Shown: positions 19,945 through 22,245, numbered from the stretch's first letter. The stretch is DNA of 64,000 bases from Escherichia phage JP4 (PQ330092), one strand, 5' to 3'. Made by a program: numbers and translations. The notes: generated by a model not told the origin, from the letters alone.

Positions 19945-20415
19945 ATGACATTACAGAGTTCATTGGAAAAAGCAAAGAAGATTCATGAGTACATGAATAT
20001 GGCAAAAGAAGGTTCAGTTTACGGTGTTTTCAAAGACACAAGTACTCAATATTATGTACCGGATAACCTCCTTTATAATGACTGCTCAGATACAGAAACG
20101 TGCGTACTGGATACCGACCCTAATGATTATGAATGCTTCATTAATATGCATAATGAGTACATGGTCTATATTAATGATACAGATACCATCAACAGTACTG
20201 ACAGCGATTCCAATGACATTATAATTCCGAGTGAAGTACTGGAAGGTCCGTGGGATAGTGAAGAGTATTACTTCCAACAAAGTACTGTATACGATAATGA
20301 AGTACTTGATGTTATTATAATTATGTGGTACTTTAAAAGTATTGGTTCTGGGAACTTCTATTTCGATTACAAATACGTAAAGAAAACTGTAGATAACGGT
20401 ATTAACAGGGGTTAA
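19945..20415 (+). CDS. family B paralog (subfamily MSLQSALE...GPWDSEEYYFQ)
   Basis: EEYYFQQSTVYD; N-terminus MTLQSSLEKAKKIHEY. Confidence 0.8.
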   Translation: MTLQSSLEKAKKIHEYMNMAKEGSVYGVFKDTSTQYYVPDNLLYNDCSDTETCVLDTDPNDYECFINMHNEYMVYINDTDTINSTDSDSNDIIIPSEVLEGPWDSEEYYFQQSTVYDNEVLDVIIIMWYFKSIGSGNFYFDYKYVKKTVDNGINRG

Positions 20416-20416
20416 A

Positions 20417-20887
20417 ATGAGTTTAGAAAGAGCATTAGAGATTGCGAAGTTAATTGATTTATGCAGCAAAGAAATTGTAGCAAATTGTCTCAATGGATAT
20501 CTATTCAAGGAAGGTAAATCTTATTGTCGAATGAGATACGATGACAGTAGTGAGTACATTCACATGTATGAAGAAAACTTAGATTCTTCTGAAACAACAC
20601 TCAATGGGTGTGATGTTAATTTGGAAGATAATTACATGTACTTCTGTCGTGATGCTGATATTTTAATACAAGATTCTGACATTATATCTGGTGCAGCAGA
20701 GAAACATCTTCCGTATTCAGTACTGGATAATGACTGGGGAAGTGAAGAGTACTACTTCCAGCAGAATACGATCTACGCAGAAGATGTACTTGACAAGCTT
20801 GTCATTCTGTGGTACTTTAATAATACAGATTGTCCTAGCTTCTATTTGGACTTGGATCTACTACGAGTTATTAAAGAGGATATATGA
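20417..20887 (+). CDS. family B paralog (same subfamily)
   Basis: EEYYFQQNTIYA. Confidence 0.8.
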   Translation: MSLERALEIAKLIDLCSKEIVANCLNGYLFKEGKSYCRMRYDDSSEYIHMYEENLDSSETTLNGCDVNLEDNYMYFCRDADILIQDSDIISGAAEKHLPYSVLDNDWGSEEYYFQQNTIYAEDVLDKLVILWYFNNTDCPSFYLDLDLLRVIKEDI

Positions 20888-21327
20888 GTTTAGCAAGTGC
20901 ACTTGAACTAGCACACAGAATACATCACTTCCACGATAACATAAAAAGTGGGTTCTATGGTGATAAAGTAAGTGCATTTGGTGATGAGTATTATCTATCA
21001 GGTATAAAGACATACTCTGATGATATTTTACTTATGGGACAGGATAAAGACAATACTATACAGTACTCTTCATGTAGTCAATATACTAGTTTTTTTGTAT
21101 ATATTCCAGGTACTAAGATTACGTTTGACACATCAAATGCACCTGTTGACTTCGGGGTACTTGATGGCCCGTGGGGTACTGAAGAGTATTACTTCCAACA
21201 GAGTTTCATTTTTAACCAAGAAATGCTTGATTCCTTGGTTGTGTTGTGGTACTTTAAGGAATTGAATTTTGAACCATTCTTTCTTGACTGGGGAGCATGT
21301 GAATATTTAAGTTCAGGGGATTTGTAA
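20884..21327 (+). CDS. family B paralog (same subfamily)
   Basis: EEYYFQQSFIFN; ATGA overlap. Confidence 0.8.
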   Translation: MSLASALELAHRIHHFHDNIKSGFYGDKVSAFGDEYYLSGIKTYSDDILLMGQDKDNTIQYSSCSQYTSFFVYIPGTKITFDTSNAPVDFGVLDGPWGTEEYYFQQSFIFNQEMLDSLVVLWYFKELNFEPFFLDWGACEYLSSGDL

Positions 21328-21815
21328 TGTCGTTACAAAGTGCATTGAAAGAAGCAAAGAAGATTCATGAGTATATGATTATGGTACAAGAAGGTTCAGT
21401 TCCAGGTGTATATAAAACATCTGATACTGAATTTTTTGTAAAAGACCGTGACGATTATGACGAGTCCGAGATATGTGCAGAAACATTAGTACTGCACACT
21501 GATACTGGTGACAGTGATAACTGTGAATATCATATGTACAATCAGTACATTAGTTATTGCCGTAATGAAGATATTACCATCTACAACACAGATAGTGATG
21601 CTGATGACACTATCATTCCTTATTCAGTACTAGAAGGTCCGTGGGATAGTGAAGAGTATTACTTCCAGAATAGTACGTTGTACAATGAAGAAGAACTGGA
21701 TGTTATTGTGATTATGTGGTATTTCAAAAGTATTGACTCCAGTAGTTTCTATTTTGATTATGAATATGTAGAGAATACTGTAGGAGAAGGTAATGTCATT
21801 ACAAAGTGCTCTTGA
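21327..21815 (+). CDS. family B paralog (same subfamily)
   Basis: EEYYFQNSTLYN; N-terminus nearly identical to 19945. Confidence 0.8.
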   Translation: MSLQSALKEAKKIHEYMIMVQEGSVPGVYKTSDTEFFVKDRDDYDESEICAETLVLHTDTGDSDNCEYHMYNQYISYCRNEDITIYNTDSDADDTIIPYSVLEGPWDSEEYYFQNSTLYNEEELDVIVIMWYFKSIDSSSFYFDYEYVENTVGEGNVITKCS

Positions 21816-22245
21816 AAAAGCAAAAGAACTACATGGATACTTTGACGATATAAAGGCAGGAAAGTTCAAAGAAGTGTACAAAGCCGAGAACGGCAACTAC
21901 TACAAAGATGAAATGTATAATAACTCCGTTGGTGTAAGGGTTATTCTTGGGTTGAATTCCAATAGTCCTATATCGTTTTCTGAATACAATAGAGATGCAG
22001 AATTTATTAGTTATGTTGAAAATGGTAGCATTCGTTTTATTAATCGCAAAAAACCATTAATTTTGAATTATGAAGTACTGGATGGTCCGTGGGATAGTGA
22101 AGAGTATTACTTCCAAAACAGTACTGTTTACGATGATGAAGTACTTGAAGCATTAGTTATTATGTGGTATTTAAAGAGTGTTAACTGTCCTCGATTTTAT
22201 TTGGATTTCGAAGAACTTCGTAAAGATCCAGAAGGTATAGAATGA
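21793..22245 (+). CDS. family B paralog (same subfamily)
   Basis: EEYYFQNSTVYD. Confidence 0.8.
   Translation: MSLQSALEKAKELHGYFDDIKAGKFKEVYKAENGNYYKDEMYNNSVGVRVILGLNSNSPISFSEYNRDAEFISYVENGSIRFINRKKPLILNYEVLDGPWDSEEYYFQNSTVYDDEVLEALVIMWYLKSVNCPRFYLDFEELRKDPEGIE

Follow-up and report, generated by a model that had tools for sequence, protein, structure and literature searches.

Five head-to-tail open reading frames (ORFs), here designated g1 to g5, occupy positions 19945 to 22245 on one strand of a 64,000-nucleotide stretch of DNA (the window) from Escherichia phage JP4 (PQ330092), and each contains its own version of a short segment referred to as the core. By alignment their products form one family, 29-58% identical in amino acid sequence to the product of g1; all five ORFs are complete, start with ATG and encode 147-162 amino acids (aa). 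They are the counterparts of genes 370-374 of phage 121Q and all match phrog_9317, of unknown function, over nearly the whole profile (E 3e-55 to 9e-66): g1, 19945..20415 (+), 156 aa, ortholog of 121Q gene 370 (E 2e-63), core block at 20245-20276; g2, 20417..20887 (+), 156 aa, gene 371 (E 5e-59), divergent core at 20729-20760; g3, 20884..21327 (+), 147 aa, gene 372 (E 3e-55), core variant at 21166-21197; g4, 21327..21815 (+), 162 aa, gene 373, exact core at 21636-21667; g5, 21793..22245 (+), 150 aa, gene 374, exact core at 22084-22115. The start of g5 overlaps the 3' end of g4 by 23 nucleotides (nt), and purine-rich sequences resembling ribosome-binding sites lie upstream of g3, g4 and g5. A Pfam search with the five products at E<=1 gave no significant match, the only resemblance being a weak one of g3 to DUF6051 (E 0.07), below the cut-off.

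The 5-kb stretch around the array is matched by 35 phage records, the best being PBECO4 (98.7%). Nearly all matching records with a full taxonomy line are classed as Asteriusvirus, a genus of jumbo coliphages with genomes of about 350 kb, and the window is from such a phage. For ortholog comparisons the locus was taken from 23 related phages. Phage CMSTMSU (L008), whose record is flagged UNVERIFIED_ORG, was excluded from the analyses; its family genes are broken into fragments of 60-171 aa, for which sequencing errors are the likely cause.

The core encodes the protein motif VL(E/D)GPW(D/G)SEEYYFQ(Q/N)S. An earlier reading of this DNA, made from the sequence alone, had proposed that all five genes share a near-identical block of about 35 nt at this place. 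The proposal holds for four of them: the 32-mer GGTCCGTGGGATAGTGAAGAGTATTACTTCCA occurs exactly at 20245 (g1), 21636 (g4) and 22084 (g5), with 0 occurrences expected by chance, and with 3 mismatches at 21166 (g3). It does not hold for g2, in which the homologous segment (20729-20760) differs from the block at 8 of 32 positions (hand count from the sequence) and the core shares 73-75% identity with those of the other four genes. The longest exact runs measure 35 nt (g1-g4), 33 nt (g1-g5) and 32 nt (g4-g5). The strong divergence of the gene centres, noted in the same reading, is borne out by nucleotide identities of 36-61% between paralogs. The 5' ends of g1 and g4, which had been called near-identical, agree at 51 of 60 positions (85%) and belong to a pair that is simply closest along most of its length: g1 and g4 are mutual nearest paralogs in every region outside the core, with 70.5% nucleotide identity overall, and to judge from these identities they are simply the youngest pair. 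The nearest paralog of g5 changes along the gene, which is g1-like in the core and post-core segments and g2-like in the tail.

Silent sites of the core in paralogs and orthologs

Where paralogs have the same amino acid, they use the same codon in 79% of cases in the core, against 47% expected from codon usage; the corresponding values for the centre are 53% and 49%. Codons that are rare in general are common to the cores: CCG (11% of Pro codons) is found in 4 of 4 copies, GAG (27%) in 5 of 5 and CTG (8%) in 3 of 5. The proportion of synonymous differences between paralogs (pS; Nei-Gojobori, pairs pooled) is 0.35 in the core, about half of that found in the N-terminus (0.65), centre (0.73), post-core segment (0.65) and tail (0.66), the post-core and N-terminal blocks in this comparison being gap-free. 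Synonymous divergence of the core is therefore below that of its flanks, and identity at the DNA level exceeds, to a moderate degree, what the amino acid motif needs, as had been suspected from the sequence.

A z score of about 7 for codon identity, obtained by pooling the ten pairs, was dropped as a headline figure since the pairs are non-independent; a column-level test is used instead, with codon columns as the units and restricted to those in which four or more of the five genes agree in the residue. The 12 core columns have a codon identity of 0.82 and the 30 others one of 0.59 (permutation P=0.014). In the g1-g5 pair 13 of 13 core codons are identical, compared with 24 of 39 elsewhere (62%). 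The pairwise homoplasy index (PHI) test on the paralogs gave P=0.026-0.029, and a permutation of silent matches in the style of GENECONV gave P=0.029 for a 15-codon run in g1-g5 and P=0.04 for g3-g5, both values uncorrected for the ten pairs.

Orthologs of the 23 phages have a core pS of 0.170, compared with 0.182 for the centre and 0.147-0.232 for the other regions, and the number of extra codon states per column is 0.39 in the core and 0.34 in the centre. Since orthologs show normal silent variation there, the core nucleotides would not be constrained as such. The products are under purifying selection, omega among orthologs being 0.11 for the core and 0.25-0.30 for N-terminus, centre and tail.

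These values bear directly on the idea that the core DNA is itself functional, as a structured RNA, as a site of regulation or protein binding, or as a translation signal that depends on particular codons, so that its nucleotides are under selection. The block does hold an inverted pair, CTGGAAG...CTTCCAG, with flanking AGTACT, and non-preferred codons are conserved in it. However, silent variation among orthologs is not lowered in the core; shuffled versions of the five 76-nt core segments fold as well as the segments themselves (z -1.4 to +0.9); an Rfam search with the core gave no match at E<=1; and promoter- and terminator-like motifs are present at the core at chance level only. Different motif codons are used, moreover, by some 30 other members of the wider superfamily to which the five genes belong (GAA GAA, TTT and TCA/TCG/TCC in distant paralogs of the window) and likewise by the copies of the divergent phage JNE01. 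Because of the normal ortholog pS, the other codons in distant paralogs and the lack of RNA structure, a functional DNA or RNA element in the core appears unlikely and is largely refuted, and selection on the nucleotides themselves is considered a very improbable source of the identity. As the ortholog control argues against such selection, gene conversion would be the most economical cause of the silent excess.

Derived variants and the case for gene conversion

Several derived variants of the core recur in more than one paralog. The second-position change CCG>CAG (Pro>Gln) is present in g1 and g4 of 121Q and slurp01, in g5 of slurp01, E9.1 and UE-S1, and in g3 of BF17 (codon sites 20248-20250 in g1, 21169-21171 in g3, 21639-21641 in g4 and 22087-22089 in g5; loci L001, L002, L003, L013 and L016); its recurrence reflects either parallel selection or spread between copies. 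The residue concerned adjoins an invariant Trp (G-P-W to G-Q-W), and four of the five paralog groups show the replacement, in different phages. GTA>GTT is found in g1, g4 and g5 of UE-S1, and GGTCCATGG in g3 and g4 of ph0011 only. Within genomes, derived variants shared between paralogs in the core amount to 9 unique events, against 3.2 under a codon-shift null in which the codon columns of one paralog are shifted (P=0.007), a comparison that is biased upward in the core, where identical codons have identical mutational options.

Two further lines were tried and given up. A label-permutation test for shared derived variants (104 vs 79, P=0.001) is confounded, divergent genomes having more derived sites in every gene. 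The g4 core of the window, which differs from g4 of BF17 at CTA/GGT/GAG, was considered as a tract converted at several sites; once more genomes were included, GGA proved to be derived in the BF17 group, and only GAA>GAG is left to explain.

The reading we favour, at somewhat better than even chances, is one of selection on the protein motif together with occasional, old, short-tract conversion among g1, g4 and g5 and partly g3, with no shuffling of cassettes. The five genes would then be a relatively young tandem subfamily within a lineage-specific expansion of small proteins with 37 members. Most of the DNA identity of the core would come from strong purifying selection on the protein motif, and the moderate silent excess, confined to the core, from occasional non-allelic conversion over tracts of tens of nucleotides, starting in the one segment whose similarity between copies is high enough for pairing. 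Such events would be rare, mostly older than the divergence of the sampled Asteriusvirus phages, and would neither homogenise the genes nor shuffle cassettes. Of the sequence-only reading, which had set gene conversion between copies against selection alone, this keeps the conversion, for which the silent excess in the presence of normal ortholog variation argues; the support drawn from the tests is modest, and the process would have been much more restricted than had been supposed.

A number of results weigh against conversion. The statistics are moderate, and the core was picked afterwards for looking identical; the silent-run test loses significance once corrected for ten pairs; at third positions only, shared derived variants show no excess overall (33 vs 29); and for the CAG of g3 in BF17 and of g5 in E9.1 the genome concerned offers no donor. 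Concerted evolution is not seen, and in the great majority of genomes each gene retains a core signature of its own: AATGAC..GGAAGT for g2 in all genomes but 121Q and slurp01, GG(C/G)CCGTGGGGTACT for g3 in most, and GAAGAA for g4 in most. A small tandem subfamily immediately upstream (18738-19935) lacks a core-specific silent excess (0.68 vs 0.65, P=0.43), so that the core effect is not a general property of these arrays.

An explanation that does without conversion attributes the block to purifying selection at the protein level, shared ancestry and chance, in a core picked by eye; identical residues elsewhere would more often be convergent than inherited, which would lower codon identity there. 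In line with it, the formal tests give marginal P values (about 0.03 for PHI, 0.029 uncorrected for the silent run and 0.014 for the column test); conserved columns in the post-core and N-terminal segments also lie above the codon-usage expectation (0.58 vs 0.41-0.45), by which silent sites are not fully saturated; and codon identity in the neighbouring subfamily is uniformly about 0.65. Orthology is fully stable as well: in a bootscan of the 23 phages against the five genes of the window, the genes of relatives stay in their own ortholog groups along the whole length, with flips of the best match confined to the core and the part just after it, where all paralogs are alike, and paralogs within a genome are not closer to one another than to their own orthologs. 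The explanation accounts less well for the effect that remains on columns conserved in at least four of the five genes, for the rare codons CCG and GAG in every copy having the residue and CTG in three of five, for the complete codon identity of g1 and g5 in the core against 62% elsewhere, and for the second-position change CCG>CAG, which four of the five paralog groups show and which recurs in several paralogs of a single genome. We regard it as doubtful, while giving it real weight, and infer for the silent excess the combination of motif selection and occasional conversion set out above.

Variation of the array between isolates

Comparison of the locus between related phages, suggested earlier as a check on copy number, revealed an array that is not static. 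Gene g1 is absent in 6 of 22 phages (Turkey3, TH47, ph0011, WPEC3, fEgEco12 and Ec-M-J); its slot in Turkey3 holds a small-family gene and an unrelated 61-aa ORF, and a comparable ORF pair is annotated at the slot in ph0011, fEgEco12, WPEC3 and Ec-M-J. Phage A4 has four genes in the array. Gene g5 exists in two allele classes that are 62-86% identical (centre about 72%), with neighbouring genes 88-100% identical (window g5 vs L010 5815-6258); the window has the class A allele and 10 related phages have class B. At the protein level the tail of class A resembles g2 and that of class B resembles g4. The dimorphism of g5 resembles that of genes under balancing or diversifying selection. As a separate observation on g1, the gene of the window has a single 21-nt unit encoding DTETCVL (20089-20109); in most relatives, where the g1 product is 163-164 aa long, the unit would be present in two tandem copies, as the sequence of SP27 shows, a length polymorphism of the in-frame slippage type.

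A four-gamete test over g2-g5 (20417-22245, 1.83 kb) in 21 genomes gave at least 66 recombination events, which would mean either that exchange among phages is very frequent here or that homoplasy is high. Hudson-Kaplan intervals overlap a core in 10 of 66 cases, about 11 being expected from length by our own estimate, and the cores are thus no hotspot. Some blocks of divergence between isolates cross a gene boundary, running from the 3' end of a gene into the 5' end of its neighbour, as at g2-g3 in 121Q and from the 3' end of g4 into g5 in SP27. Chimeric genes, with the 5' module of one paralog and the 3' module of another, were not found in the 23 phages. As seen in these alignments, the mosaicism between isolates is allelic exchange at the same locus.

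Active cassette recombination, the process put forward in the sequence-only reading, would have the cores act as crossover joints at which N- and C-terminal modules or copy number are swapped, as in the lpl genes of Staphylococcus aureus, to diversify the family. The exact repeats of 32-35 nt, 448-1839 nt apart, could serve as recombination substrates, gene content does vary (loss of g1 in six phages, four genes in A4, two g5 alleles, copy number of the neighbouring array), and the g2-like and g4-like tails of the two g5 classes would fit an exchange of modules. Against this stand the lack of a breakpoint hotspot at the cores, the stable ortholog groups, with flips only in the core and post-core segments, the filling of the g1 slot of the six phages by unrelated genes and not by a chimera, and the purifying selection on all genes (omega 0.11-0.30). 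The fourth gene of A4, examined as a g4/g5 fusion by unequal crossing-over, is a deeply diverged g4-type allele with a tail equidistant from g4 and class B g5 and with different codons, and is no recent chimera. Because breakpoints are not enriched at the cores and the A4 gene is not a recent fusion, the lpl-type joint model is unsupported, and we give cassette recombination very little credence. The class B g5 allele was also tried as a g5/g4 chimera; its tail DNA is about equally far from class A g5 and from g4, so that it may be a chimera, though not a recent one.

There is also a slight chance that, in a family of 37 members built of a scaffold and a variable sheet, the core is a maintained recombination anchor, where rare ectopic exchanges, within a genome or between co-infecting phages, move variable N-terminal sheets and C-terminal tails between copies and where Pro>Gln is an adaptive allele spreading between copies. 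If this were true, the phage population would have at its disposal a combinatorial repertoire of host-interaction or counter-defence proteins.

Superfamily, predicted fold and comparable systems

An iterative search with hidden Markov models places g1-g5 in a superfamily of 37 same-strand ORFs (103-204 aa; 9464..37789, +), with 17.7 kb of coding sequence in a span of about 28 kb. The members are spread over many PHROGs of unknown function (9317, 12674, 34017, 28549, 15629, 13866 and others). In an alignment of 17 of the 37 members F-Q is invariant, within the motif [ST]EE.[YFLW]FQ.S[LT][VIL][YFHW]. A confident AlphaFold2 model was obtained for g4 with 16 window paralogs as the alignment (predicted local distance difference test score, pLDDT, 87.8; predicted template modelling score, pTM, 0.82). 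It consists of an N-terminal helix, a seven-strand sheet that corresponds to the variable centre, short helices at 99-103 and 109-115 that carry the core, and, after the core, a long helix (121-135), a strand and a final helix. The core motif is modelled with very high confidence as a short helix, a loop and a second helix between the variable beta-sheet and the C-terminal helix. The predicted fold had no match among solved structures; the matches in BFVD are only uncharacterised proteins of RaK2-like jumbo phages (121Q, RaK2, GAP32, Serratia BF and Yersinia fHe-Yen9). Paralogues make up about 10% of the proteins of RaK2 (PMC3622015). In the searchable literature the superfamily is not described as one family and no function is given for it.

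A more distant paralog, g6 (22861..23310, +; 149 aa; phrog_12674), follows the five genes, and its motif, TEEGYFQGSTVY, has the same amino acids as that of g1-g5 in partly different codons. The recognition pattern of tobacco etch virus (TEV) protease is E-x-x-Y-x-Q-(G/S), and it is fitted by EEYYFQ(Q/N)S (20260-20283, 21651-21674 and 22099-22122) and especially by EEGYFQGS of g6 (about 23140-23163); the ELFQ(E/A) of the small upstream family we take to recall the sites of 3C proteases. Because the core motif is modelled as a well-packed helix (pLDDT about 97), its role is more likely to be structural than that of a cleavage site.

Programmed antigenic-variation cassette systems, such as pilE/pilS of Neisseria and vlsE of Borrelia, have silent truncated donors and a single expression site. 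The array is like them in that conserved blocks flank variable segments in tandem copies, and unlike them in having no silent truncated donors or single expression site, the five ORFs being complete, under purifying selection and of stable orthology. The lpl paralogs of S. aureus reportedly have a conserved mid-gene region with variable ends on either side. With that cluster of tandem lipoprotein genes, as outlined by Tsuru and Kobayashi (2008, PMC2568036), the array has in common tandem paralogs and blocks of divergence that span gene junctions; it differs in that breakpoints are evenly spread and show no concentration at the conserved core, and in that chimeras with swapped modules were not found. 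Interlocus (ectopic) gene conversion between tandem duplicates is described in many genomes, for instance for duplicates in Drosophila (PMC2588116). The likeness here lies in a short tract, within the most similar segment of diverged tandem paralogs, where identity is raised at silent sites too, and in some derived variants common to paralogs of one genome; the signal, unlike in typical cases, is weak and old, with tracts of tens of nucleotides and marginal formal tests. As in RaK2-like jumbo phages, a large same-strand array of small uncharacterised paralogs is present, with structural relatives in RaK2, GAP32, Serratia BF and fHe-Yen9.

In evolutionary terms the finding is ordinary for tandem paralogs, here in a phage group already known, and the observation of DNA identity itself opens no new question. 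If conversion did take place, the array would provide a small documented case of non-allelic exchange among paralogs of a jumbo phage, by a process well known elsewhere. More notable is that about 28 kb of the genome is taken up by a single family of small proteins in 37 copies, with a confident predicted fold unmatched among solved structures. Being under purifying selection and heavily recombined between isolates, the superfamily would be a reasonable target for work on the function of jumbo-phage accessory genes.

The small tandem subfamily upstream of g1 consists of three genes (18738..19935, +) of the phrog_15629/13866 type, belongs to the same superfamily and has the motif DYTVLDD.ELFQEALVFDKK. 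At about 19223 of the window, BF17, 121Q, CRJP21, slurp01 and Turkey3 have some 530-600 extra bases (L001 2224-2753, L002 2224-2813), which hold an ORF of 53-74 aa and one further small-family copy; the copy number of this neighbouring array thus varies. Downstream of g5, the 102-aa gene at 22556-22864 of the window is replaced, gene for gene, by a gene of 444-474 bp in about 10 phages, among them SP27, Ecwhy1, ph0011, Turkey3 and TH47 (L010 6569-7042, L007 5143-5586, L005 5574-6017), and in SP27, ELP-22, TH47 and ph0011 the replacement gene receives a weak score as a superfamily member.

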